A stretch of 64,000 nt of DNA from Eledone cirrhosa (Eukaryota), in NCBI GenBank assembly GCA_964016885.1, contig OZ024741.1:125240001-125304000 (forward strand). Reading direction: 5' to 3'. Shown one piece after another: positions 6,766 through 42,950 of this stretch. Each line of letters starts with the position of its first letter. The first letter of the stretch is position 1. The position numbers and the translations under genes are program-made. The notes beneath the pieces are model-generated. The model saw nothing but the letters and a program-made list of their open reading frames with translations. It was not told where the DNA came from and ran no database searches.

Positions 6766-9700
6766 CATATATATACATATATATATGTGCACATATATTT
6801 TCTTGTGTTGCACCATAGAGCATGTGTGTTTACGTATGTCATTGTGTTTATATGTGGGTAGAGATGTGTGCTGATGTAGGTATGTATGTTGACGTGTGTA
6901 TGTTGTGGGTTCGTCTTAGGGAGAAGTGTTTAGACGGGGTTCGTATTTGTTAATGAAGTAAGATTCCTTGCTGATGCGCTGGGTGTGGGTGGCATTATCT
7001 TTAAATTTGTAGAGGGGAAAGATTCTGAAGTTGGGATGATTTGGGGCGGCACAGGTATCAATGTGTTCACTCAGTGGTATTTTCCTGTATTCCCGTATTT
7101 TGATTTGGGATCTATGGACAGTCATGCGTTGGCGGAGGCTGTTTTTGGTCTGGCCTATGTATTGTTCTCGACAACCTGAACAAGTTAATACATATATTAG
7201 ATTTTCCGATGCACATGTGAAATTGTGTTTTACTATAAAACGTTGTCCATCTTTGAAATAGAATTCCGAACCCTCTATTAGGTTGATGCAAATGCCACAG
7301 TTGGGTCTATCGCATTTTTTTACTGTGGGTTTCGTTGTTGTGGTTGGCAGTACTTTGGCATGTGTTAAGATGTTTTTCATTGACTTGGATTGTCTTTTGC
7401 TCTTTATGATGTCGTGTGTTCGTAGAATTTGGTTCATTCTATGGTCCTTTTTCAATACAGGGATGTTCTGGAGGATGGTGTCAAAGGCCTCATTGTTGAG
7501 GGGGTTGTGTGTGGAGATGTATGGAAGAGCTTTTAGTTTTGGTTGATTTACTTTAGGGCGTCTAAGGTCCTGGGTACTGAGTTTTAGGGCACGTTGGATT
7601 CCATTGTCAATTAGTGATGCAGGGTAGTCCCTGCCTATGAGTGTGTCCTTTAGTTCTTGTAGCCGTAAGTAGCAGATGTTTTTATTGGAGACTATAGTAC
7701 AGATTCTCTTGGCTAAGTTGTAGGGAATATTAATTTTAACGTGTCTAGGGTGGCAAGAGTTGAAGGGGAGAGATTGCTTGGAGTCTGTGGGCTTGTAGTA
7801 TATGTCTGTTTCTATTTTTTTGTTATGGATCTTAATGAGGATGTCGAGGAAGGGGAGTCGTTAATGGCTGTATTCCATCGTGAAGTTAATATTTGTGTTG
7901 AGCCCATTTATAAGGGTGTGAAATTCTTTAAGTTTTTCGATGTTTTCGTGCCAAAGGATGAAGCAGTCATCTAGATATCGCTTCCAGTTCCTTTCAATGT
8001 GTAAGTGGAGGGTGTTTCCAAATTTGTTTAGGACTTTAGTGTAGAGGGTGATTTCCAGGAATCCCATGACTAGGTTGGCATAAGTGGGGGCTGTTTTCGT
8101 TCCCATAGCGGTCCCAGATTTCTGCCTGTAGGGTTTGTTATTGAAAACGAAGTAATTGTTCTCCAAGATAAATTTGAGTCCCTCTATCACGAATTCTTTT
8201 TTGATGCGTTGTGGGAGTTCATTGTGGAAATTATCCAGCCAGAATTGGATAGCTTCTATTCCTAGGTTGTGGGGGATGTTGGAGTATAGGTATGTTGGAG
8301 TATAGGTTGACTACATCGAACGTCACTAGTAGGGTTTGTTCAGAAAGTGGCATATTAGGGAGGTGATTGAGCATATCTAGGTCGTCCCTTATATAGCTTT
8401 TGATGTGCTTGAGGAAGGGTTTGAGAAGGGTATCAATGAAGTTGTTAAGACGGTGCGTTTCGCAAGCGGGGCCTGCTATTATAGGTCTTAATTTGAGATC
8501 ATTGGGTGAGGGGACATTGATGACTATGTCTGTGGCTTCCTTGCATGCCTTACTTATTGATTCGCTTTTATGTACTTTAGGGATACCGTAGAAAAGGCTG
8601 GATTTACTTGTGAAGTCTGTGATGAAGCTGAATTCCTTGTTAGTGAGTCTTTCTTTGTATTGGTTGATTAGAGTTTTTAGGTTTCTCATAATTTTCTGTT
8701 GATTGTAGTGTTCAGCCTTTTCGTAGTATGTTTCGTTTTCCAAAGTGGAGAGCGCTAAGTTGATATAGAATTCTGTCTCCATTAGGACTACTGTACTCCC
8801 TTTATCAGCCTCTTTAATTGTAATGGTTCTGTCGGTTTTTAATCTATTTAATTCTTCCCATTCTTTCTTGTTGAGGTTTGGCTTGTGTTTTTGTCTGTGC
8901 AAGTGTTGGTAAGGGAAGTTTGTGATGTGTTCACAGAATTCGTCCAGGATTTTATTTCTACCTTTTGAAGGGGTGTAATTGCTTCTATTTCTGGCTAATG
9001 ATTCATCCTCATTGTACTGGTCGAATAGTTGTTCACTAAGTCGTAACTTTCTACAGAAGTCTGTGATGTCTTCCTTCATTTCATAGTAGTTAGGACGTAG
9101 TGGGGTCGGTGTGAATTTAAGACCTTTGGAGAGTAAGTTGATAAGGTTGGGTGTTGGTTCTGCACTAGTAAGATTGATAATTTTTATTACTATCGGTTTC
9201 TCCTCCCTGTCTTGTGTTATTTTGTTTGCCTGTATCTGTGTGCTGTGTCTAAAAAATGGTTGGGGTAGAGGGGTTGTCTGCTGATGTTAAGTGGTCTCCT
9301 GTGTTTGTTATATTCCTTGTTGTTGTAAAATGTAGTTCGGGTTGGTGGTTGTAGATTGAATGGGGTGTTCCTGTACTGCGAGTATGGGTGTGTGTTTCTA
9401 TGTGCCATGTTGTATTGTGGTGTTATAAGTGGCCTACGTTGTTGGTTGTATCGTGTGGTGTGGGTTTGTTGTGTATTGTGGAAGCGAGAGTTGAGAAAAT
9501 GGTAATTACCCTGCTGTCCCCTTGAAGCGGGGAAGTTGTTACATCTATCATGGCGGTGGTATATTTTCCCTATGTTTGACGATGAGGCATCCGCGTAGTA
9601 GTTGAGTGATTTGGTATGGTGTCTCCTTGAAGGGGGAAAGTTGTAAATGTCATTCTGGGGGAGATGATTTCTTGGGTTTTTGTTCCTTCTTATGGTAGCG

Positions 9701-10035
9701 AGGTTGGGAAGTTCATCTTCGGTCTGGTGCTTCCTTCTTCGTTTGTTAGAGGCTTGGGGGTTTGAGAAGTTGTTGTGCGGTTCAGTTATGGGTTTTCCTA
9801 TTTTTATGAACGGGTTATTGGAGGTGTAATCCGTTTGAAAAGTCGATTCATAGTGTAGGAACCAAGCGGCACTTTTTTCCCAGCGTTGAAGGGATTTCAG
9901 TTCTTCTCTGTATAAGACATCAGCACTTCTCCGTATAAGACAAAAGCTGAAAAATATCTTTTGACATGCTAAAATACCCCCATTGCTTTCAGACACATTC
10001 TTACTGACCATCCCTGCCACCACGAATTACTCTGC

Positions 10036-16785: not shown

Positions 16786-17176
16786 TATATTAATAAGAGG
16801 AATTCCAACTTTGTCTGATTTACTCGTTTTATTTACAATCCTTTAAAATTTATAATGGTATTATAATGAAATAGTATGATAGAATATTAAATTCTAAGTG
16901 TTAATTGAACAAGTACTTTCATGCTTTCGCAATCTTCAGGTTCATAATATGTGGTGACAGTCAAGTTTGAAATTTTCAACTGTTGAAAATTTCAAACTTG
17001 ACTGTCACCACATATTATGAACCTGAAGATTGCGAAAGCATGAAAGTACTTGTTCAATTAACACTTAGAATTTAATATTCTATCATACTATTTCATTATA
17101 ATACCATTATAAATTTTAAAGGATTGTAAATAAAACGAGTAAATCAGACAAAGTTGGAATTCCTCTTATTAATATA
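16786..17176. repeat. 391-bp palindrome with 1-nt spacer at 16981, hammerhead in each arm
   Basis: 195-bp arms appear to be exact reverse complements; (TA)n adjoins the left arm and lies ~45 bp beyond the right arm. Confidence 0.95.
17018..17056 (+). ncRNA. Minimal type I hammerhead ribozyme (mirror copy on minus strand 16906-16944)
   Basis: TGAAC-CTGAAGA-T TGC gaaa GCA T-GAAA-GTAC-TT-GTTCA; palindromic AGTACT stem III, CUU triplet. Confidence 0.75.
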
Positions 17177-17218
17177 ATCTTCTATACACAATCATACACA
17201 CCCGTGTATATTTACCTA

Positions 17219-17374
<156 letters not shown>

Positions 17375-17556
17375 TATATAACGTTATACTTTTGGAGAAA
17401 TCTTGCAAAACAAATTCAAAAATGAAGTATATATATACATATATGAGTTTGTGTGTGTGTGCGTGTTTTGTGTGTGTATGTATGTGTTTCTGTATGTTTA
17501 TGTGTCTCTATTAGCATATACAAGTATATATATATATATATATATAAATAAATTTA

Positions 17557-17658
17557 GTCCTTTATCAGTGATCTTCCAGCCTTCATTGGTATTTCATCGC
17601 TTTAAAGACCATATACCTCTGGTTGGTGCGAGCAACGGCTAAAGAAAGTCGTTGGGAC
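17557..17658 (-). ncRNA. Structured RNA with hammerhead core motifs in non-canonical order (paralogue 1; core reads CTGATAA)
   Basis: GTCC-hairpin-CTCGCA-CCAACC aga GGTAT A TGGTCTT taaagcgat GAAATACC aatgaa GGCTGG AAGATCA CTGATAA a GGAC. Confidence 0.55.
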
Positions 17659-18079
17659 ACATAAATAAGGGGAACGAGCGAGACAGTAAACAAACAAAGA
17701 TGGTAATGCAACGAAAAGTGTGGAGGAAGGAGTAAAGTCCCTGAAATCGATGAACATAAGTTCTGTGAAATCGTAGACGAGAGAGAATAAAGACCATCCG
17801 ACCTGGTCGAAATGTAAGCGAGGAAAGAATTTCCTACAGGTCAAACGGCAGGAAGTAGGAGAGGGAGTAGCAGAGAGTGAGTGAGTGAAAGTGTGAGGAA
17901 GAGGCTAACAGAGAGAGTGACTGGCAGAGGGGGTAAAAGGAAGTGAGAGATACAGAGAAGGGGGAAGCAGTAAGAAAGAAACATACGGGTCACAGCGGAG
18001 GAAAATATATAAATATATGAAAAATATGAAAACATGTCGTGGTGCGTGGTTGCAAATGGGTTACATATGAATAAATTTA

Positions 18080-18161
18080 GTCCTTCGTCAGTGATCTTCC
18101 AGCCTTCATTGGTATTTCATCGCTTTAAAGACCATATACCTCTGGTTGGTGCGAGCAACGG

Positions 18162-18165
<4 letters not shown>
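18080..18165 (-). ncRNA. Second, 5'-truncated copy of the paralogue 1 RNA with intact CTGACGA core
   Basis: Same as 17557-17642 except TCGTCAG (minus CTGACGA) at 18085-18091. Confidence 0.55.
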
Positions 18166-18216
<51 letters not shown>

Positions 18217-18219
<3 letters not shown>

Positions 18220-18745
18220 TAAAAATAGACAAGGGTTAAAATGTCCTCTTCAGTAGTCTGCTGATTATCGTTGGTATTTCGACGGTATTAAAGACTAGAT
18301 ACCTAAAATCAGTGCGAGCGATAACTCAATTAAGTTATCGGGACAGTGGGAAAAGAGAGGAAAGGAAACAAACACATGGTGGTATGCAACGTAAAGAGAG
18401 GAAAATAGAGACAAGTCAATGAATCACGTGGGCATAAGCCCGACATATCAAATTGACGAGGAGAAATAGACACGTCCGAGCCGCGAGAAGATTGAGAGAG
18501 GAAAGAAATTCAAGCAGGTCAGACGGGAGGAAGTGAGAGGGGTGGAGAAGCAGAGAGGGAGTGAGTGAAAGTGGGAGGAAGGGCCAGCCGAGAGTGAGTG
18601 ACCAGCAGCGGGAGTTGAGGAAGGCAAGAGGTGAAGGAGAGAGAAAGTGTGATACATTAAAGTGACAGAAAATATACGAACCACAGCGAAGGGAAAATTT
18701 ATGTGAATGAAGAATGGCGGCACGCCATTCTTCATTCACATAAAT
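18217..18745 (-). mobile_element. Diverged paralogue of the 17546-18165 element
   Basis: Colinear similarity, e.g. ATGCAACG.AAAG and GCAGAGAG.GAGTGAGTGAAAGTG.GAGGAAG blocks; flanked by (TA)n. Confidence 0.7.
18242..18345 (-). ncRNA. Structured RNA with hammerhead core motifs in non-canonical order (paralogue 2)
   Basis: TGTCC-CGATAACT taattg AGTTATCG-CTCGCA-CTGATT tta GGTAT C TAGTCT ttaataccgtc GAAATACC aacgat AATCAG c AGACTA CTGAAGA GGACA. Confidence 0.6.
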
Positions 18746-18834
18746 ATATATATAAACATATATACAAAATATTGTATTTATTTTATATATATATATAAAC
18801 ATATAAAGAAAATATTGTATTTATTTTTACGTGA

Positions 18835-18913
<79 letters not shown>

Positions 18914-21666: not shown

Positions 21667-22499
21667 CAATATATAAGCAGTTTTATAAATAAATTTGACG
21701 TACCATAAATATTGATCAACTTCCATGTAAGAAGTTGGTTTGGTAGTGAGATGTTTATAAATATTTAGTGTTACGCACAGTTAGAAAGAAAGATGGAGAA
21801 AAGGAAGAAATGTATGTAAAGAAAAACAGAGAGATATAGAGAGAGATAGGGGAGAGAGAAATAGTGAGGAGGTGAAAAATGAGAGGCAGCTGAGGCAACA
21901 GATGAATAATAATAATTCATCATACAAATTGAGAGATTTAGGAGGGAGGGAGTACTGTAATTATTTATTTATTTATTTATTTAGTTATAGTGTTAAGGAG
22001 ACGGAGAGAAATAAAAAATAAATAAAGAGAAAACAGAGAGGTAGAGAAAGATAGAGGTGGGGGGGGGGGGGAAAGAGGTAGACCGAATAATAATAATTAT
22101 ATATGGGGAGGTGAGAGAAATAGGAGAGAAGTAAGAGAGAAAACAATAGAGAAGCTCGAGAGGCAAAGTTAAAATAACCGATACTTAAATTTCATCATGT
22201 ATAGAGGGAGGAGAAGAAAGAGCTATATCTAGAGAGAAGGATGATAGATTTACAACTTTACGTTATGTCCTATCAATTTGAATTATCAATTCATATGAAT
22301 TGGGTATTATAATGTAAATATCAATATTCATGAATGAGACATAGATATATAATGTGTGAAAAAATAATGACCATATGTTTAGTTTAAAAATTCTTAGGTC
22401 GATGTACCAAAAACTGAGATAAAACTTCAAAAAATACGGAAATACATAAGTATATATGTACTTTCCGGAAAAAGAAAGAAAGAGAAAAAGATAAACAAA

Positions 22500-25400
22500 T
22501 ATAGTGTGTAGTGTTAACTAAATATATAGTGTGTAGATGTTGACTGTATAAATAGTGTTTAGTGTTGACTATATATATAGTGTGTAGTGTTGACTAAATA
22601 TATAGTATGTAGATGTTGACTGTATAGATAGTGTTTAGTGTTGACTATATATATAGTGTGTAGTGTTGACTATATATATAGTGTGTAGATTTTGACTGTA
22701 TATATGGTGTGTAGATGTTGACTGTATAGATAGTGTGTAGATGTTGACTTTATATATAGTGTGTAGTGTTGACTATATAGATACTGTGTAGATGTTGACT
22801 GTATATCTTGTGTTTAGTGTTGACTATATAGATACTGTGTAGATGTTGACTGTATATCTTGTGTTTAGTTTCGACTATATAGATAGTGTGTAGTGTTGAC
22901 TATATAGATAGTGTGTAGTATTGACTGTATAGATAGTGTGTAGATGTTGACTATATATATAGTGTGTAGTGTTGACTATATAGATACTGTGTAGATGTTG
23001 ACTGTATATATAGTGTGTAGTGTTGACTATATATATAGTGTGTAGTGTTGAATGTATATATAGTGTGTAGATGTTGAATGTATATATAGTGTGTAGTATT
23101 GACTGTATATATAGTGTGTAGATGTTGAATATATAGATAGTGTGTAGTGTTGAATGTATATATAGTGTGTAGATGTTGATAATATAGATAGTGTGTAGAT
23201 GTTGACTATATATATAGTGTGTAGTATTGACTGTATATATAGTGTGTAGTGTGTACTGTATATATAATGTGTAGTGTTGACTGTGTATATAGTGTGTAGT
23301 GTTGAGTATATATATAGTGTGTAGATGTTGACTATATATATAGTGTGTAGTGTTGACTATATATATATAGTGTGTAGATGTTGACTATATATATAGTGTG
23401 TAGTGTTGACTGTGTATATAGTGTGTAGATGTTGACTATATATATAGTATGTAGATGTTGACTATATAGATAGTGTGTAGTGTTGACTATATATATAATG
23501 CGTAGTATTGACTGTATATATAGTGTGTAGTGTTGACTGTGTATATAGTGTGTAGTATTGAATGTATATATAGTGTGTATATGTTGACTATATATATATA
23601 GAGTGTAGATGTTGACTATATATATAGTGTGTAGTATTGACTGTATAGATTGTGTGTAGTGTTGACTGTATATATAGTGTGTAGATGTTGACTATATATA
23701 TAGTGTGTAGTGTTGACTATATATATAGTGTGTAGTATTGATTGTATAGATTGTGTGTAGATGTTGACTATATATATAGTGTGTAGTGTTGACTATATAT
23801 ATAGTGTGTAGTATTGACTGTATATATAGTGTGTAGTGTTGACTATATATATAGTGTGTAGATGTTGACTGTATATATAGTGTGTAGTGTTGACTGTATA
23901 TATAGTGTGTAGTGTTGACTATATATATAGTGTGTAGATGTTGACTATATATATAGTGTGTAGTGTTGACTGTATATATAATGTGTAGATGTTGACTATA
24001 TATATAGTGTGTAGACGTTGACTGTATATATAGTGTGTAGATGTTGACTATATATATAGTGTGTAGATGTTGACTGTATGTATAGTGTGTAGTGTTGACT
24101 ATATATATAGTGTGTAGTATTGACTGTATATATAGTGTGTAGTGTTGACTTTATATATAGTGTGTAGATGTTGAATGTATATAGTGTGTAGATGTTGACT
24201 GTATATATAGTGTGTAATGTTGACTATATATATATTGTGTAGATGTTGACTGTATATATAGTGTGTAGTATTGACTGTATAGATAGTGTGTAGATGTTGA
24301 CTGTATATATAGTGTGTAGTATTGACTGTATATATAGTGTGTAGATGTTGAATGTATAGATAGTGTGTAGATGTTGACTGTATATATAGTGTGTAGTATT
24401 GACTGTATAGATAGTGTGTAGATGTTGAATATATAGATAGTGTGTAGATGTTGACTATATATATAGTGTGTAGTGTTGACTATATATATAGTGTGTAGTG
24501 TGTACTGTATATATAGTGTGTAGTGTTGACTATATATATAGTGTGTAGATGTTGACTGTATATATAGTGTGTAGATGTTGACTATATATATAGTGTGTAG
24601 ATGTTCACTGTATATATAGTGTGTAGATGTTGACTATATATAATGTTTAAATGTTGGCTATATAGATAGTGTGTAGATGTTGACTGTATAGATAGTCTGT
24701 AGTGTTGACTGTATAGATAGTGTGTAGATGTTGACTATATATAATGTTTAAATGTTGACTATATAGATAGTATGTAGATGTTGACTGTATAGATAGTCTG
24801 TAGTGTTGACTGTATAGATAGTGTGTAGATGTTGACTATATATATAGTGTGTAGTATTGACTGTATAGATTGTGTGTAGTGTTGACTATATATATAGTGT
24901 GTAGTGTTGACTATATATATAGTGTGTAGTATTGACTGTATATATAGTGTGTAGATGTTGACTATATATATAGTGTGTAGTGTTGACTGTATATATAATG
25001 TGTAGATGTTGACTATATATATAGTGTGTAGATGTTGACTGTATATATAGTGTGTAGATGTTGACTATATATATAGTGTGTAGATGTTGACTGTATGTAT
25101 AGTGTGTAGTGTTGACTATATATATAGTGTGTAGTATTGACTGTATATATAATGTGTAGTGTTGACTATATATATATTGTGTAGATGTTGACTGTATATA
25201 TATTGTGTAGATGTTGACTGTGTATATAGTGTGTAGTGTTGACTATATATATAGTGTGTAGTATTGACTTTATATATAGTGTGTAGTATTGACTATATAT
25301 ATATTGTGTAGATGTTGAATGTATATAGTGTGTAGATGTTGACTGTATATATAGTGTGTAATGTTGACTATATATATATTGTGTAGATGTTGACTGTATA

Positions 25401-26458
25401 TATAGTGTGTAGTATTGACTGTATAGATAGTGTGTAGATGTTGACTGTATATATAGTGTGTAGTATTGACTGTATATATAGTGTGTAGATGTTGAATGTA
25501 TAGATAGTGTGTAGATGTTGACTGTATATATAGTGTGTAGTATTGACTGTATAGATAGTGTGTAGATGTTGAATATATAGATAGTGTGTAGATGTTGACT
25601 ATATATATAGTGTGTAGTGTTGACTATATATATAGTGTGTAGTGTGTACTGTATATATAGTGTGTAGTGTTGACTATATATATAGTGTGTAGATGTTGAC
25701 TGTATATATAGTGTGTAGTGTTGACTGTGTATATAGTGTGTAGTGTTGACTATATATATAGTGTGTAGATGTTGACTGTATATATAGTGTGTAGATGTTG
25801 ACTATATATATAGTGTGTAGATGTTCACTGTATATATAGTGTGTAGATGTTGACTATATATAATGTTTAAATGTTGACTATATATATAGTGTGTAGATGT
25901 TGACTGTATAGATAGTCTGTAGTGTTGACTGTATAGATAGTGTGTAGATGTTGACTATATATAATGTTTAAATGTTGACTATATATATAGTGTGTAGATG
26001 TTGACTGTATAGATAGTCTGTAGTGTTGACTGTATAGATAGTGTGTAGATGTTGACTATATATATAGTGTGTAGTGTTGACTATATATATATAGTGTGTA
26101 GTGTTGACTGTGTATATAGTGTGTAGTGTTGACTGTATAGATAGTGTGTAGATGTTGACTATATATATAGTGTGTAGATTTTGACTATATAGATAGTGTG
26201 TAGATGTTGACTATATATATAGTGTGTAGATGTTGACTATATATATAGTGTGTAGTGTTGACTATATATATAGTGTGTAGATGTTGACTGTATATATAGT
26301 GTGTAGTGTGTACTGTATATATAATGTGTAGTGTTGACTGTATATATAGTGTGTAGTGTTGACTATATATATAGTGTGTAGATGTTTATATATAGTGTGT
26401 AGATGTTGACTATATAGATAGTGTGTAGATGTTGACTATAGATAGTGTGTAGATGTTC
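22500..26458. repeat. ~4-kb minisatellite, 25-26 bp unit AGTGTGTAG(A)TGTTGACTRTATATAT, ~150 copies
   Basis: Direct tandem repetition with variant units. Confidence 0.97.
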
Positions 26459-28177: not shown

Positions 28178-28953
28178 AATGAAAAATTTGAACAGGGACA
28201 GAACAGAGAGGCAGTACAATAAATGTTTATTAAATTCACGCTCAGGAGAGTGGGGGTAGGTGGGGGACGACGTTTCGGGCATAAGCCCTTCCTCAGGTGA
28301 GAAGTGTGTGGGAACAGAGTTCAAAAGGTGTGTAGGGGAGTGGTGGAGAGACATATAGCGAAAGGAAACGGTGCGAATGAAAAATTAACAAATAAAGACA
28401 AAAAATATAAAAAATAAAAATAGAGCATGATCAAAATACAAGGAATGAGAAAATTTTAAAATAAAGGCATGATCAAAATAAACTGAAATTAAAAGGGGGG
28501 TAAACAGGTGGTGGAAGGGTGTGGGGTGAGTAGGGGTGGTGGCGGGTGGAGTGGGGAGAGGGAGACGGCGTGTCCGAGCGGGGAGGGCTGAAGGTGGTGT
28601 GTGTGTGTAGGTGTGCGTGTGTGTGTGTGTGTGTGTATGTGAAAGTGCGGGTTGGGGGAAGAACGGGGTTGCATGTTCAGGAAGAGGTGTGTGTGGGGGG
28701 GTTTTGTGGGTCGGAGTGTTTGTGCGTGTGTGGATAGGGGTTGGGGGGAGAGGAATCAGGAGGCTGAGGGTGTAAATATGTGGTGGGAAGCACGTGTGTG
28801 TGGGGTTTAAGCGTGTTGTGGGTGTGGGTGGCGTGTGGAGAAAAAAAAATGTTTGGGGGTGTGTGTGTGTGGGTGAGTTATATAGGTGATGACGTAAGAG
28901 GATACCAAAATGTTTAACCCCGACGGCAGAGCTCAAGCTGTTTCGACGGCTAT

Positions 28954-32449: not shown

Positions 32450-35400
32450 CAAAGGCCACCCCACCACAGGCACCCCCACCCAAGTCATCCCCATCCCACC
32501 AGACACCCCTTCCCCACCAAACATCTCCGTCCCAACCCCGCCAGAAACCACCACCCCATCAAACATACCCTCCAACACCCCCATAGAAATTGTGCAGCCT
32601 GGTCCCCAGGAGACGAAGAGCCCGATACCCGGGACGCAGAGAGGTAAGTGCCTTTTCTCTTCACCACCAACATGGCTATGCTAAGAGTAGGCTGTCTAAA
32701 TGCGCGTGGCCTGGGCTCAACTTGGAAGCAAGCAATGCTGCTAAATGACCTCAGGTCACAACGTATAGATGTGATGGTTATTTGCGAGGCCCGGATCAGC
32801 AACGTGCGACAGCTGGCCCCCACCTTTGATGACTTTGAGATGCACGCATCTCTCTGTCAGCCCGGCGGTGGGGGTGGGGTTGTCGTTCTGCTGCAAAAAC
32901 ATCTGGGTCTCGCAACACAGACGGCACATTTGGACCCGGAGGATCGACTAGTGGTTCTGGACCTTGGCAGTGGGGAAGGCGGAGCGTTTAGGTTGGTAGC
33001 CGTCTACGGCCCTTTCGGGTCAATGCGGCCGGACTTCTTCCATCGTCTGGAGACTTTTCTAGGGACGTCCCGCTCCTTGCTATTAGTGGGGGACTGGAAT
33101 GGTATCCTAGATGCACGTTGGGACTACGTAAGGACCTGTCCCGATAGAGAAGGGTGTAATAAATAGCCTCAAAGGGTTAATCGGTCGATTTGACCTGGCC
33201 GATAGATATCGACTAGATTTTCCGACTGCGCCAACCTGGACTTGGGTAAACTTCAGCGGATCATCTAGGTCGTACCTAGATAGGTTCTTAGTTAGAAATA
33301 AGGATAAGGACTTTTTAAGTTGTCCAAAAATGCGCATGGTTGGCTATTCAGACCACAAGTTAGTGACCTGCATGGTCAACCTTGACAGAACGCATAGACA
33401 GGGACCCGGTTACTGGAAGCTCAACTTGCCTTTACCGGCAAGTAAGGCTTACAGGGACCGGATTAGCACTTTAGTTAAGGAGCGGTTGACGGGTGCCATC
33501 GTCAACAGCAGGTGGTGGGGATCTCTCAAAAGAGAGATTAGAGAAGTCTCTATAGAATTTAGTAAGGAGTTAGCCTCAAATAGAAATAGGAAGAAAAGGG
33601 AGTTGGTAGATAATGTAGAAGAGGCAATTAGAAGTGGTGACGTGGCCAGAGGGCTAGCGTCGAGAACGACCCTGGGCCAGTTCTTCGACGCGAAACACGA
33701 AGGCTGCATCGTCCGAAGCAAAATACGTGCTCTGGGAAACGAGGGGACCAAATCTGTTAGCTGGGCCCGCGTGACAGAAGCCAAAAGAGGGAGTAGATGC
33801 ACTATCCGGTCTTTGCGAGACCAGGATGGACGGGTGATCCTTGAACCTAGGCAGATGTGCGAGGCTTTTCAAAAGCACTTTGCCAGATTGGAAGGGGCGT
33901 GGAGCCGGTTGGGGAAGTGGACTTCGGTCCATATCTCGACGGCCTGCCGTGTCTCTCGGACAGGGAGGCGAAGCCTGCGAGGAGCCGATTTCAGCCGCTG
34001 AGATAAAGGACGTGCTGATCCAATGCGGCAAACGCAAATCCCCGGGTCTCGATGGTCTTCCATACGAACTATATCTAGCTATGCCAGACTTGTTCCCCGA
34101 TCTCCTCGAGGCGGTCTACTGCAACTGGCAACAGAACGGGAGAATTCCCTGTGCTGTGACCAAGGGCGTAGTCACGCTAGTGAGGAAGGATGAGAACAAG
34201 GGGGACGATATAAATAATTTCAGGCCCATAACTCTGCTAAATACAGAGTTACAGATCTTGGCCAAGGTGCTAGCAAAGAGGTTGGCGCTTGTCGTGGGCA
34301 ACCTGGTGGGAGATGCGCAGACATGTGCTATCCCGTCCAGGTCCATCCACAACCTCCACCTCATGCGATACATCATAGAGAGGGTTGGGAACGAACCCGG
34401 CTTTGGTGGGGCCCTGATCAACTTGGATCAATCTAAGGCGTTCGATAGGGTCGACCATGGTTACCTGGATGCGGTGCTAGTGGCGGCAGGCTTCGGACCC
34501 GTTTTCAGGGGCTGGATCAATGCCATGCACAGCAGCCGCATCTGCTCTAGGGTCAAGGTGAACGGCTACCTCTCGGAGCCGTTCGAAATCGCGCGGTCCA
34601 TCCGACAAGGGTGCCCTCTCTCCTCCCTTCTGTATGTAGTGACTCTAGAGTCACTGCTGCGGAAGTTGGAGTTGTTGCAGGGCATCCCGTTGGAACCGGG
34701 ATTGCGGAAAGCGGTGTCGGCCTACACCGATGACGTAACAGTAATGGTGTCGACGACCTCGGAAATCGGGGCGATCGGCACCTTACTGGAGGAGTACGAA
34801 AGGTTTACAGGGGCTTAGCTGAACCGGGACAAGTCGATCGGTCTGCAACTCGGCACGTGGAGAGGCAGATCGATGCCCTCCGATGGCGTCGTCGGGCGCT
34901 GGACGGGGGGCCCGGTGAAGTTGCTCGGGGTCTAGTTCGGAACAGACCTCCAGGTGGAGAAGAACTGGGGTGAGGTAACGAACAGGGTGTTTGCACTGAC
35001 CCAGAAGTGGGCCGAGTGCAAACTGTCCCTGAAAGGTCGGGCGGAGGTGGCGAACACTTATATAGCGTTCGTCATCTACTACCGCCTGACCGTCGTGCCT
35101 TGCCCAAGAGAAACGCTCACCAAAATGGAGTGCGCACTCTTCCAATTCCTTTGGAAGAAGCGAGCTCCTAAGGTGAGGAGATCCATCTGCTGTCAACACC
35201 CTTCGAAAGGAGGGCTGGGGATGCCGTGGCTAATGATACGTAAACACGCATTAAGGCTACGGCACCTCCAGGTATTCCTCACCGGTCAACCGATGTGGGC
35301 CCCGTTTGTGAGGCGAGCCTTTCCCAGATTCGTCTCGCTCACCGAGCTGCAATCCTGGGTCAAGCAAAGACTTGAAAACTGTGCGCCGGGCACACCGAGT

Positions 35401-36357
35401 GTGCCCAAGCGCTCACGGCTCTCTGGCAGGCGAACCCGGCTGTCAGTGGAGAATCCACCTCATCATTCTATAGAGGGCTGGTGGTTTGCAGGTGCTACGA
35501 CGCCCTCGGAGAAGCCCTAGGCATGGAGGAAGACGCACCTGTTCGGTAGGACATTCAGCCCGGGACCCATGGATAACTTCCAGAGGTCCCTGGCCTGGCA
35601 GTGCTACCGAGGGGCTCTGCCCGTTCGAGAAAGGCTATACAGACACGGGTGCCCGGGTAGGGACCCTTCGAAAAAGATCTGTCCCAGATGCGTGTGCGAC
35701 GAGGAAACCGTTGCACACGCATTGGTACACTGCTCGAGCATTGCCGATCTGTGGGGCTATGTCGAACAACTGCTGTCAAGGGTGGGACCGATCCGGTTGA
35801 CCACCGAGCCTATTGTAACGATCAGCCGCCTCCCCACTTCAAAAACGAAGGAGAGGCGGTGTTTCTGTGAGTAGTAGCCATGGCGAAAGAGGTTGTATGG
35901 TGGACGCGTCTGAAAGGACTGAGGTCAGACACCTTTCTCTCTGGCCAACAACTGGTCCGTTTCTTCCGATATCATTTCGGAAGAAGGACAGGATGGAGAG
36001 AGAAGGGTGCTGCACCCCTGCCGAAAGATGGGTGAAAGTGGGGAGAATGGCCTGCGTGAATGGGCCTTCACTCTACATCAGACTGTAGGTGAGAAAGATG
36101 AAAGATCATGGGAGCACCCTCTCTCTGTGCTCCTGAGGATAAGGGTTGCACACTTCTTTCGGGGGTGTGTGCGACCCCCCAAGGCGCCTCCTCCCTATTG
36201 AGGATTTTGTTTTTCAATTTATTTTTGTTATATTTTATATTTTATATTTTTATATTTTGTTATTGCCTCCTCCTTATTGAGGACGCCTTTTTATGTAAAC
36301 TCCCCCCATTGTACTTGTCCCACTCTTTGATGCCCTGGTGGCAAATAAAAAGAAAGT
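32450..36357 (+). mobile_element. 5'-truncated Tx1/L1-group LINE with 16-bp target-site duplication
   Basis: TATCTCTAGCTATCTA at 32434-32449 and 36358-36373; ORF2 plus 3' UTR ending AATAAAAAGAAAGT. Confidence 0.9.
32672..36088 (+). pseudogene. LINE ORF2 (APE endonuclease, RT, C-terminal zinc knuckle) with several stops and frameshifts
   Basis: GCLNARGL, VGDWN, YSDH, KSPGLDG, RPITLLN, LDQSKAFDRVDH, RQGCPLS, AYTDD, CPRC...ETVAHALVHC. Confidence 0.93.
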
Positions 36358-38478: not shown

Positions 38479-41400
38479 TAGCGGAGCTACCCGGTTTCGC
38501 TCGGTGTTAAAAAGCTTATTTAGAAAACAATAATATTAACATTTTAATCGTTATTTAAAAACTTCTCTAATTTAGTTTCTATTTTTTAGATCTTAATATT
38601 TATCTTTAAATGACTGAATCACTGATGAATTTAAAGAAAACTCGTTATAAGAACATTTAATTTATTTTACTGAAGTGCTTTTGGATACACAATGTTTTTT
38701 TTTTTCCTTCTGGTGCGTACACGAATAAATCAGAAGGTTTACCGACGCGTGAGCAAGCCACATACATCTGTCCATGTGAGAAGCATGGATTTTCTAAATT
38801 TAGTCCACACACTTGTAGCGATTGTCCTTGTGCTTTGTTGATAGTCATTGCAAAGGCGAGTCGCACCGGAAACTGCAAACGTTTGAATTCGAATGGCGTA
38901 TCTGTCGGAATCATTGGGATGCGTGGCAACAGTACATCTTCTCCTTTTAATTTTCCATTTAAAATTGTAGCTTCGATGATATTGTTCATCATCTTTTTCA
39001 CTGAAAGCCTGGTACCGTTGCAAAGTTGTGGTGGATTGATGTTTCGGAGAAGGATGATAGGCACGCCAATTTTCAATGTTAAAATGTGCGGTGGCATGCC
39101 TGGCAAATCAAGTGAATTCAAGAATTCAGTTGGATAATTGATAATTTCGTCTTGATTCATTACAGTATCGATGGACTTATACGTTGTCGCTTCGCCTGGT
39201 ATTTTGTTTTGAATGCTGAAATTAATGGCATTGACATCGTTGTTTTTGGCTGCTAATATAGCACGTGCATTGAGCCACTGATGATTTTTGTAATGCTGCG
39301 CAATATTTGGGAACACTTTGTGAATCAGTTCGTCTCTGGTTGCCGTGATTCTACAGAAGTTTGTTGGCAATGTCATACATTTTGTGGATTCATCGATTAC
39401 CATTTTCCCATTCCCAATATCCAGCAACTGTTTTGTGAAACGTTCAGCGGATGCATCATTTTGTAGTTGTACACACATATTGGTTTTTAAAGTTAATTTC
39501 TGTACGTGTCGCCATAAAACTGATGATTTGAGACATGCATTAAGCTCATCAGCGGGTGTTGATCGCGGTATGCCTGGTAGAGTTTGTCGAAAATCACCAG
39601 ACAATAAAATGAGTGTGCCACCGAAGAGCTGTTCATTTCCTTTCAAATCTTTTAGTGTGTTATTAAGCGCTTCCAATGATTTTTTGTGCGCCATAGTACA
39701 TTCGTCCCATATAATGATTTGGCATGATTGGAGTACTTTACCTATACCAGAATTTTTGGTGATATTGCATGTTGGTGTCTCAGTGATTTGCATATTCAAT
39801 GGCAATTTCAGTGCTGAATGTGCAGTTCGGCCACCATCCAAAAGAGTTGCTGCAATTCCAGATGATGCGATTGCCAATGCAATATTATTTTGTGATCGTA
39901 TAGTTGCCAAAATAAGTGAAATGAGAAAAGTTTTGCCTGTACCACCGGGCGCATCTATAAAATACAATCCGCCGCTTTGATTTGTAATTGCCTGCATAAT
40001 TTTGTCATATAGTATGCGTTGTTCTGTTACCAATTTCAGAAGATTCGTTTGAACAAATGTACCCAATTCGGCGACATCAAAGTTTGTTTCTCGTTGCAAA
40101 TCACGATCGAAAATGTCGTTTACAGATCGATTCGGCGCAGGCATTCCCAATTGTACCAGTATTTTGTTAGCGATTGCTAAACATATGACCTCAATCGAAA
40201 CCAATGCTTCATTATACACGATTGGTGTGAATTGAATATCCAGATTTTGATTTGTTGCACGCAAACGATGTAGGATGTCTTCACTCATGTAGTCTTTGTA
40301 TTTTTCCCAAAGATCTTTTGGATTTGATGGGAAGCACGTTGTCAATATTATTGCGAATAACGTGCGTATTTGCTGTGGTCGAGCAGTATTCGATGCATCA
40401 GCGAGTGAAGTGTCCCAATGTCCATCATTTTCAAGAAGATGTAATTTTTGGCAAGCTTCACGATAAGTGGCACATACTTGACCGTTTACTGTTCTCAATT
40501 CTTGGAATGATGTCGGTCCACGTACGTTGATTAACAATAATCGCAAGTAAAAGCATTCTGCATTATTTGGGTGAACAGTGTACAAACGGCCTAACGCGTC
40601 GGTCGAATATAAATTGGGATGTCCTTCAACTACTTTACCCTGTTTGCGACGTTTAAACTTTTTCGTTGATGTATTCCATGTGTAATATGTTGGCACTTCA
40701 GAATAAAGTAGTGTCTTTGCAAACACATCTTCACTGCACAATGAGAAAAACGCAGTTAACGTTGTTGGCGGTGGTGTCAATGCCCTTGCACGTATATTTT
40801 CATTTGTGAAGTATACGCGCTGTCCATTTTCAAGGTGCACCGCCAAATGAACAACTGTTGGATGTCGATAATGGATTGGAAATGATAAAATGCGCCATAT
40901 TGCTTCATTACTACTAATGTAGCGTCCCAGTGGGTATTGGTCGATTTCATCGATAGATGCATTTGCATTGCACACTCCAAAAACTGCCATATCGCTTCCT
41001 TTGTTGATATATTTGCAAATGTACTTGATCGCTTTCACCGAATTGCAATACTCGACATTGATGTGTGCTTTGAACGTCTTTGAGAGTAACGATGAATATG
41101 GTACAACCCAACGATTATCGACTTCAACATAATTGTTTCGTACTTTTAAAGTGATGGATTTGCCGCCATCTTCAGTTGCTCGTCGACGATAGAGTGGATA
41201 TCCGTCATTGCCAGTGATAGTCTCGGCAACTAAGTCTCTTGGGTATTGTTTCGTGCATTTCCCATCAGACATGCATGGTGAATTGTTGTTGAGTAAGCCA
41301 CATGGACCATGAATCATGTTTTTAGTGACGACTTCAAATAAGTCTGGATCAACGTCGACATCTGGTATTTCTGCTGAGATGATTTGATCAATTTGATCTG

Positions 41401-42950
41401 ATGTGACTTTTTCAATTAACCAAATCAAAATGTGTGCATGTGGCAATCCTCTTTTTTGCCATTCAATGGAAAACATCCAAAAACATGATGCTTGACAATT
41501 AAATCCGTTAACGATTTCAATTTTTGTTTGAACGCAGGCGCTGTTGTAATATCATGACGATCCGAAGACGATTGACCAGGTAACAAAAGTTCTTTAATTT
41601 CATCCCACGTAGGATTGCATGTGAATGTAATAAAAAAAATCTGGACGGCCATATGCGCGAACATATTTCATTGCATCTTGTGCGTATTCATGCATGTGCC
41701 GTGGGCTCCCTGTAAATGTAGCTGACAGTATGACCATTTTCCCCAATTAATTAGGATTCATATTGCCATCATTAACAATGGCATCACGTAAATGAATGTA
41801 CTCTTCTGAACGTAGCTTGGTTTGATTCAATCGAATGTAGAGGAGTCGTTCGGTTTCGATTTTTGCATACATATCGACAATGTATTGATGGAACAATTGT
41901 CGACATTTCAAAATATGATTTCCACCGTTTTCACGAATCATTAATCTATATGAATAATAATTCATGGCACTGACTTTCTTATTCGTTTCCTCATCTGTTT
42001 GTGGATTTCTCAGTTTGATGTTGAAATGATATCCATCTTCTCCTTGCCAAAATAAAATCGGATATTGCAATCCATCGTATGACCGATGCGTTTCTGAGAC
42101 TCGCTGAACATCACCATTTCTGCGGTGAAGAATTATATCGCGCGAGTTAAATTCTTCACCTACAATAACGATCGCCACTTCATCAATTGTTGGTGCATTG
42201 TACTGTCTTTGATGTTAGCCAACAGGTGTTTTGTCTGCTCTAACTACAATTGTGTAGTCATCACTTGGCATTTGTTCAAGGGCAGCTCTGAACAATCGAA
42301 TTAATTTGTTGTGTTGATTGAATAAAGTTTGTAATGCAGTAACAATTTCTCGTTTAGTTCCCGTATTGAATTTGCAACGTTGATCTATTTGGTCATCAGT
42401 GTTTCCCATGAAATAAATTTGAAGAAATTTGTGATCTGCGTCCGGCAGTGGTAGTAGTGATCCAGCACGATGATAAATTTGCCCTTGCACTTTGAATGTT
42501 GGCATGTAATTCTCGCGCACGATATTTGTTGCACCGAACGATGTCATTTGGAAACATGAATTGTACTTGCGTATGTTTGCCAAGAAATGTTTAGATTCGC
42601 TTGTGTCACCTGATACTAACGTTGATAATGGTTCAGGTGGTGGATGTAATTCTGGCAATTTCACTTTTCCACCCGAGCAGCACATTCCTGGTGTTTCATT
42701 TTTAAATTTGAAGGCACCACAATACCCGCATAATTTACCCATTTTTCCAATAATCACACTTGGATGAAGACTGTAATCATAATTGGAATCGTAATGAAAT
42801 GCACCAAGATTTAAATCAGCGTGCAGTATTCTTCTGGTGAGAGCATTGCGTAGTCGATTCGTTTCCAATCTTGCTTCACGTTGCTCGTCTGTTTCAGATG
42901 AACGTAGATAAAGGACAAACATACAAACAAACAAATATACATTCATTTAT
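38478..42950 (-). mobile_element. Helitron (RepHel-encoding)
   Basis: Minus-strand 3' end hairpin ACCGAGCGAAACCGGGT followed by CTAG|T at 38478; 5'-terminus-like TATATAAATGAATGTAT..(TTTG)n near 42950; a second similar 5' end near 43604. Confidence 0.92.
38657..42910 (-). pseudogene. Helitron Rep (HUH)-PIF1 helicase, disrupted in the N-terminal part; 939-aa C-terminal ORF intact
   Basis: CGYC..CCSGG zinc motif, FITFTCNP, EWQKRGLPHAH, KYICKYINKG, DAPGGTGKT, WDEC, GDFRQ, LCNGTRL, TINKAQGQSL, FSHGQMYVACSRV; stops at 42215 and 41747 plus frameshifts. Confidence 0.95.

Follow-up and report, generated by a model that had tools for sequence, protein, structure and literature searches.

A likely self-cleaving hammerhead with S-G-C strand order and a predicted opened core in a noncoding tandem repeat of Eledone cirrhosa

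Hammerhead ribozymes of types I-III share the cyclic strand order C-G-S and a core without a pseudoknot; they cut after H17. In a 64-kb stretch of the Eledone cirrhosa genome (the window, analysed at its full length), the minus strand instead carries the core words in the order NUH, GAAA, CUGANGA (S-G-C), and their stems would form a pseudoknot. This raises the questions of whether such a motif could be a ribozyme, with the same cut after H17, how its core is closed and which element carries it. The reading favoured from sequence comparison, with a probability of about 0.78, is that it is a self-cleaving S-G-C hammerhead near the 3' end of a 520-530-nt noncoding tandem repeat; the core would be opened between A9 and G10.1 and rejoined via a four-way junction, in a fold taken from the 3' UTR ribozyme of Naiad retrotransposons.

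A preliminary description of the window had quoted the minus-strand sequences of two paralogues, P1 and P2, and both are present as given (17557-17659 and 18243-18345). The motif copies and their parts are as follows.

18243..18345, minus strand: motif of the P2 subfamily, from the re-read sequence, with pairing checked across subfamilies
18341-18344 with 18243-18246, minus strand: helix a of the P2 motif
18334-18340 with 18319-18325, minus strand: hairpin b of the P2 motif
18313-18317 with 18281-18287, minus strand: helix c of the P2 motif, broken in the window copy
18307-18312 with 18261-18266, minus strand: helix d of the P2 motif
18299-18303 with 18273-18277, minus strand: stem III of the P2 motif
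18292-18297 with 18254-18259, minus strand: stem I of the P2 motif
18298, 18277-18280 and 18247-18253, minus strand: core of the P2 motif (H17, GAAA and CUGANGA, respectively)
18297..18298, minus strand: predicted cleavage site of P2, after AUC, by analogy with the block scheme of PMC10085705
18267..18306, minus strand: asymmetric loop from helix d to stem III, with 18304-18306 opposite 18267-18272
17557..17659, minus strand: motif of the P1 subfamily, all helices present, H17 at 17612
18080..18164, minus strand: third motif copy, a 5'-truncated P1, core intact, H17 at 18135

The cut had earlier been placed between 18298 and 18297, and re-reading gives the same position. All hammerhead parts had been said to be in register; this holds for stems I and III and the core words, but helix c had been overlooked and P1 has an A at core position G8 (17562-17568). 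Given this substitution, the P1 window copy is probably inactive. Missing from the truncated P1 copy are strand a and the 5' side of hairpin b; this copy is a partial repeat upstream of the P1 unit, in a pseudo-LTR-like arrangement. In P2, helix c carries one substitution and one inserted base compared with its 35-copy subfamily. None of the three window copies is intact, and the lesion in each explains why stem II had been seen as the weak point. Neither of the two window cores passes the full descriptor, compared with 66 of 89 cores in family loci.

Within the whole window, only two CUGANGA sites have stems I and III in S-G-C order, and both are within the motif. When the core words are fixed and the remainder is shuffled, these two stems appear in 9/2000 and 14/2000 shuffles; the full fold appears in none of 4000. 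Standard models had been expected to miss the motif, and they do: Rfam gives no match in the window at gathering score and, for 16800-18900 at E<=10, 46 matches of which none is a hammerhead. Minimum-energy folding cannot represent pseudoknots.

Genome-wide, an anchor pattern for the pseudoknotted NUH-GAAA-CUGANGA arrangement is matched 10,205 times and its reversed control 6 times, which bears out the proposal of a hammerhead-type motif; its host is a dispersed repeat of about ten thousand copies. P1 and P2 are young members of it (1117 and 1406 first-look candidates, respectively; the best 40 of each were scored). Of 151 distinct near-complete copies, the 146 with few gaps were clustered. 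Each of the 22 clusters with at least two members was represented by one real copy, and single-member clusters were left out.

Six helices hold in the resulting 22-subfamily alignment: a, hairpin b, c, d, stem III and stem I. Pairing is kept in 94% of 748 cells. The covariation seen earlier in two paralogues persists, with two-sided change at 17 of 34 pairs. This pairing level is matched by 0/500 shuffles, a control that ignores relatedness, and slid partners give 26-45%. Two-sided change is found at 5/6 pairs in stem I (97% of cells paired), at 5/6 in helix d (94%) and at 1/5 in stem III (98%); helix a is 94% paired and shows GC/AU covariation at one pair. The core words CUGANGA, GAAA and NUH, together with A15.1-U16.1, are invariant in the 22 subfamilies, while N7 varies freely. 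H17 is A or C and never G in 100 of 100 among the matches listed, as judged by eye. A local GGA-NNN-TCC hairpin past the core was tried and rejected; it is present in some subfamilies only.

The loop between helix d and stem III consists in most subfamilies of a 3-nt bulge and a tandem GA (137/146 and 99/146 copies), with TA on one strand in P2. Presumably it is kink-turn-like in these subfamilies, as it fits the kink-turn consensus. Such a loop is found in none of 14 metagenomic motifs, unlike the main family.

Changes in the motif were followed on a tree of 70 copies for which the repeat body served as the sole input. On its internal branches the 11 core bases have 0 changes versus 20.9 expected. 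At the tips there are 9 changes versus 28.4 expected; from this deficit, the choice of copies by their core words accounts for about two thirds of the internal shortfall, and about 7 internal changes would still be expected. After internal changes the pair is kept in 11/13 cases for stem I, 15/21 for helix d and 4/5 for hairpin b; after tip changes these counts are lower (8/22, 13/30 and 2/20, respectively). The corresponding internal counts are 1/4 for helix c, 0/2 for stem III and 3/8 for helix a, where P2 is displaced by one alignment column and confounds the count. Within the main family there is hardly any variation in helix c and stem III. Since there is no tree-level compensation for c, III and a, these three helices need support from outside.

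Part of this support is found within the genome: a second family has other helix sequences in the same layout, and 4/15 of its cores pass the strict descriptor. The remainder comes from Naiads, a group of Penelope-like elements; neither the host element nor this link was part of the preliminary description. A decayed Naiad-like ORF of this genome served as the starting query and led to intact relatives with an N-terminal GIY-YIG and a C-terminal RT. Of the 120 relatives listed, 41 were aligned; 116 loci were obtained, picked by Naiad protein similarity only. A descriptor that demands all six helices matches the sense strand of 14/116 of these loci; the match follows the ORF in 13 of them and precedes it in one. 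Two of the 14 have identical sequences, and L483 is a poor match. On the antisense strand there are two matches, one a convincing second element and one minimal. The same descriptor finds one match in 20 tail shuffles and none in 120 viral loci picked by core words; in the viral contigs searched there is no Naiad relative.

Leaving out L483 and the duplicate, 12 sense motifs and the convincing antisense one make 13 distinct motifs, which are 41-72% identical among themselves and 43-55% identical to P2. Of the 102 loci that fail the descriptor, 21 have <150 nt behind the ORF and 64 have at least 500 nt; the weaker protein matches among the 116 may belong to other clades. Support once confined to two sequences has in this way been extended by 22 subfamilies, a second family and Naiad-related loci. 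It is extremely improbable that short words fell into this layout by chance and were then multiplied by a successful repeat. All main-family copies go back to a single ancestor and their counts are not independent, as this explanation would have it; against it, the layout recurs in the second family and in the 13 diverged motifs behind Naiad-type ORFs, and the core-fixed shuffles never gave the full fold.

Published Naiad sequences point the same way. Craig et al. 2021 (PMC8557442) give no canonical hammerhead in Naiads, in the text available, and describe 'core' or 'half core' words without a fold; they argue that Penelope-like elements may not need a hammerhead. By eye, the Octopus Naiad consensus tails of PMC8557442 have the a-b-c-d layout, with a hairpin loop sequence as in the main family. 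The supplement was covered for two core words, at 45 of 62 and 15 of 23 places, which takes in a part of the 54 consensus sequences. The split form is recognisable by eye in seven of its consensus sequences, including two from Octopus and three from Acropora. Five nematode-part Naiad passages (supplement parts 13-16) hold an intact type-CSG with an extra d helix, again by eye; the available text of PMC8557442 gives no such fold for these Naiads. Among the 116 loci, L461, L462, L476 and L507 have C-S-G order with helix a closed as a hairpin and a four-way junction (by eye), L494 has C-S-G with intact stem II, and L495, whose loops are long, is a weak candidate for G-C-S. The 36 loci L488-L523 are in records titled bacterial or archaeal, mostly short contigs; their DNA is probably animal or protist within those bins.

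In E. cirrhosa itself the Naiad ORFs are decayed: there are 93 matches, and the best 30 mostly have stops. In 21 decayed Naiad ORF loci of this genome there is no motif, and no motif elsewhere in it could be linked to such an ORF. A search pattern for tails of the Naiad-like kind has 10 matches in the genome versus 6 for its control; one passes the descriptor and none is tied to an ORF.

How the core is closed depends on what replaces stem II. A direct stem II, in which the bases after CUGANGA pair with those before GAAA, was rejected (21.6% of cells paired). Its first pair alone holds, in 17/22 subfamilies, as AU, UA, UG or CG; the main family does not have the invariant G10.1-C11.1 pair, and 5/22 subfamilies have a mismatch there. 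Helix c, by comparison, is formed by a conserved TCGC with the GCGA that precedes GAAA. A closing helix, a, and hairpin b lie between A9 and G10.1 as an insertion, which predicts a four-way junction. In the main family this junction is probably shifted one pair outward, so that a pair forms between the base that follows A9 and the one preceding GAAA. With the G10.1-C11.1 pair replaced, activity would be less certain in the main family than in Naiads.

In all 13 distinct Naiad motifs, the C before GAAA (C11.1) is paired with the G that starts helix c. The descriptor does not demand this pairing; other pair counts in the 13 motifs are circular, since their pairing is demanded. The gaps at the junction measure 0-2 nt, and stem II in its direct form has 0-1 bp in 11/13. 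The invariance of C11.1-G fits helix c in the role of stem II. As helix a is also closed as a hairpin in the four C-S-G loci, the four-way junction is not caused by open chain ends.

The bases after CUGANGA had been proposed to pair with a distant 5' GTCC. This helix (helix a) is real and the core is split, as that proposal implied, but it is probably not stem II. It is unlikely that helix a (GTCC/GGAC) stacks under the core as stem II and leaves helix c peripheral. Helix a does begin 0-1 nt past A9, with the pairing and covariation given above, and in the main family it starts with a G-C like the canonical 10.1-11.1 pair, without a spacer base in P2. Its first pair is nevertheless variable in the 13 Naiad motifs (five types), where the C11.1-G pair of helix c is invariant. 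Moreover, c followed by d matches, by eye, stem II followed by the 'I' helix of the SGC-1 construct in PMC10085705.

As stem II, helix c would have its far strand supplied from upstream and not by the bases that follow CUGANGA. The gap in the opened core strand would be closed by helix a and hairpin b, and helix d would connect stems I and II at their far ends, as the 'I' helix does in type-SGC. In the stacking proposed for this arrangement, c would lie under the G12-A9 pair and a on b; helix d and a linker of 2-5 nt would hold stems I and II together. The chemistry would not differ from that of other hammerheads, with H17 directly before the cut.

The block order itself is not new. A match to a known ribozyme topology had been named in the preliminary description as a ground for refuting its proposal, and for the order as such there is one. 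S-G-C is the order of type-SGC, known from metatranscriptome RNAs, with cleavage shown for five (Eckert et al. 2023, PMC10085705); in its available text that study reports no type-SGC in genomes of known organisms. The motif shares with type-SGC the strand order, the core words, the short stretch that links stem I to stem II, a helix that bridges these two stems at their far sides (here d) and an insertion point at A9/G10.1, where the published form has one U. By eye, stem II of the SGC-1 oligonucleotides corresponds to helix c and their 'I' helix to helix d; HRIMA-1 and the SGC variants are the closest known systems (PMC10085705).

Two differences stand out. In the published form stem II follows right after CUGANGA, whereas here block C is split by a helix and a hairpin in a four-way junction; and the chain ends of the motif here are in helix a. 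PMC10085705 assumes three uninterrupted blocks, and its patterns call for a stem II of 2 or more pairs right behind CUGAUGA(U)G-C. The C-S-G loci L461, L462, L476 and L507, with their closed four-way junction, are outside these search patterns. Type-CSG and type-GCS (PMC10085705) have the same reversed cyclic order as the motif here, but their chain is opened elsewhere and stem II is intact. The order is already known, and the wiring is absent from the available text of PMC10085705. No description of the split-core form was found in the literature covered, including the accessible parts of PMC13725137, PMC10162972, PMC3088659 and two 2026 preprints; subscription papers, figures, Repbase/Dfam and preprint supplements could hold one.

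The motif is carried by the following repeat units in the window.

17544..18075, minus strand: one complete repeat unit of P1, pyrimidine-rich and without an ORF, with a period of 523 nt
18215..18719, minus strand: near-complete P2 repeat unit, with a (TA)n end at 18165-18216
18721..18744, plus strand: 5' end of the P2 unit repeated in short inverted form, an arrangement seen in Penelope-like insertions

The P1 and P2 units are 69% identical, and the 3' end of P1 is a short tail running into (TA)n. The window unit has no ORF, and so does not have the N-terminal GIY-YIG and C-terminal RT of an autonomous Naiad. Across the genome, direct tandems (n=17) have a period of 505-541 nt, with one ribozyme motif and no ORF in each unit; the longest array seen has five units in a row (L091). 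Repeat 3' ends cluster at +70-89 and +120-139 past the cut site, mostly into TA repeats; the 5' ends lie at many different places, and inversion is frequent among them. Penelope-like insertions are marked by partial tandems, inverted 5' segments and a (TA)n target, and the same pattern is described for Penelope-like elements in PMC8557442. Naiads in particular share the (TA)n targets, partial tandems and inverted 5' parts, and differ from the window element in having an ORF (PMC8557442).

Non-LTR retrozymes (PMC7229834; 10.64898/2026.07.22.740005) are a second point of comparison. They too consist of noncoding tandem units with one hammerhead each, have thousands of dispersed copies and are linked to Penelope-like elements. 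They differ in being type I hammerheads in units of mostly 150-450 nt; here the form is non-circular with a four-way junction, and the unit is 520-530 nt. Expression as circular RNA is a further mark of non-LTR retrozymes, and the units here may share it. Strand exchange between two tandem units, with the cores restored in trans, is reported for some animal type I hammerheads that have a weak helix; the preliminary description had suggested an obligate dimer. Such a dimer is not needed and is very unlikely here. The tandem arrangement would allow it, and weak-helix animal hammerheads cleave better as dimers (PMC7229834); yet all six helices close inside one unit, single-copy Naiad tails have long, perfect helices, and published SGC RNAs with an equally short stem I-stem II linker cleave in cis (PMC10085705).

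If the motif cuts, the 5' ends of repeat copies might carry a trace of it. Among distinct 5' ends joined to (TA)n between -19 and +11 of the predicted cut (n=28, by eye), 25 are at -2 to +10 and 3 are upstream, a step with P about 1e-6 versus uniform. Beyond it, ends are evenly spread from +4 to +36 (by eye). This larger sample has a step and no peak at the predicted cut itself; a smaller sample has a weak peak near the cut (8/26 ends in 13/111 nt, P 0.008). The step suggests cutting, as one indirect sign read from the copies; TA microhomology or RT stalling could produce it or add to it.

It is quite unlikely that the fold here is a relic, or a protein-binding signal for a helper RT, that no longer cuts. 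A junction that is imperfect beside the main-family core, the decay of the Naiad ORFs and the kink-turn-like loop missing from the 14 metagenomic motifs would all suit such a state. Against it stand a core unchanged on internal branches, with N7 free and H17 never G among the matches listed, and the step in 5' ends at the predicted cut.

Under the self-cleaving reading, read-through transcripts of tandem units would be cut after NUH into unit-length RNAs, which may circularise. A Penelope-like RT/GIY-YIG protein would then copy the unit RNAs into (TA)n, starting from the 3' tail. The window also holds two Neptune-like features.

16932-17216, plus strand: young Neptune-like Penelope element, 3' end, carrying a minimal type I hammerhead whose core is at 17023
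6916-10026, minus strand: broken Penelope-like ORF with a C-terminal GIY-YIG (PF01541)

The first of these elements has an inverted 5' part and adjoins the P1 unit across a (TA)n run; its tail recurs at 30 of 30 loci of that family. The ORF at 6916-10026 is Neptune-like by its cysteine motif, a label taken from PMC8557442. The Neptune-like family with C-terminal GIY-YIG is young in this genome, and one chimera with the repeat unit is seen: at L141 956-4460 (G000:C2:369557500-369564500), a P-type 5' part is joined inside a young Neptune-like ORF via a 4-nt microhomology, with an inverted P-type 3' end in front. This chimera suggests a template switch between repeat RNA and Neptune-like RNA. That the family acts as helper of the repeat is a guess from this one case. 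The idea that the repeat unit is a deletion derivative of a Neptune-like element, which arose from L138/L141, was rejected because five other copies differ in the 5' part, because Neptune-like tails (29/30) hold a minimal type I hammerhead instead, and because L141 is a single chimera.

The fold most plausibly descends from the 3' UTR ribozyme of Naiad Penelope-like elements. A broader reading of the sequences is favoured with somewhat better than even confidence: Naiads of several animal phyla would carry reverse-cyclic hammerheads, many with the catalytic strand interrupted at A9-G10.1 by a four-way junction; this would be the first genomic home and role for non-circular permutations and would break the three-block rule (six permutations); and Naiads would have seeded young tandem retrozymes, which here outlive the Naiad via another Penelope-like clade. 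If true, the gap left by Craig et al. 2021 is settled and the argument that Penelope-like elements may dispense with a hammerhead is reversed. Non-circular permutations would move from metatranscriptome RNAs to animal genomes, with about 10,000 copies. A core strand that can open between A9 and G10.1 and bear an inserted domain would also offer a useful site for engineering switches.

The window contains a number of other features.

28180-28460, minus strand: small canonical type I hammerhead, core at 28296, at a pyrimidine-rich repeat end running into (TA)n
13748 (minus), 13924 (plus) and 21658 (minus); 20227 (minus) and 21249 (plus): CUGANGA words in two other repeat families, as inverted pairs
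22499-26457: 4-kb satellite with 25/51-nt units

The five CUGANGA words of the two other repeat families were not flagged by the fold descriptors. Long ORFs at 38657-42946 on the minus strand resemble a Helitron Rep/helicase, and frameshifted endonuclease/RT ORFs at 32648-35520 on the plus strand presumably belong to a LINE-like element.
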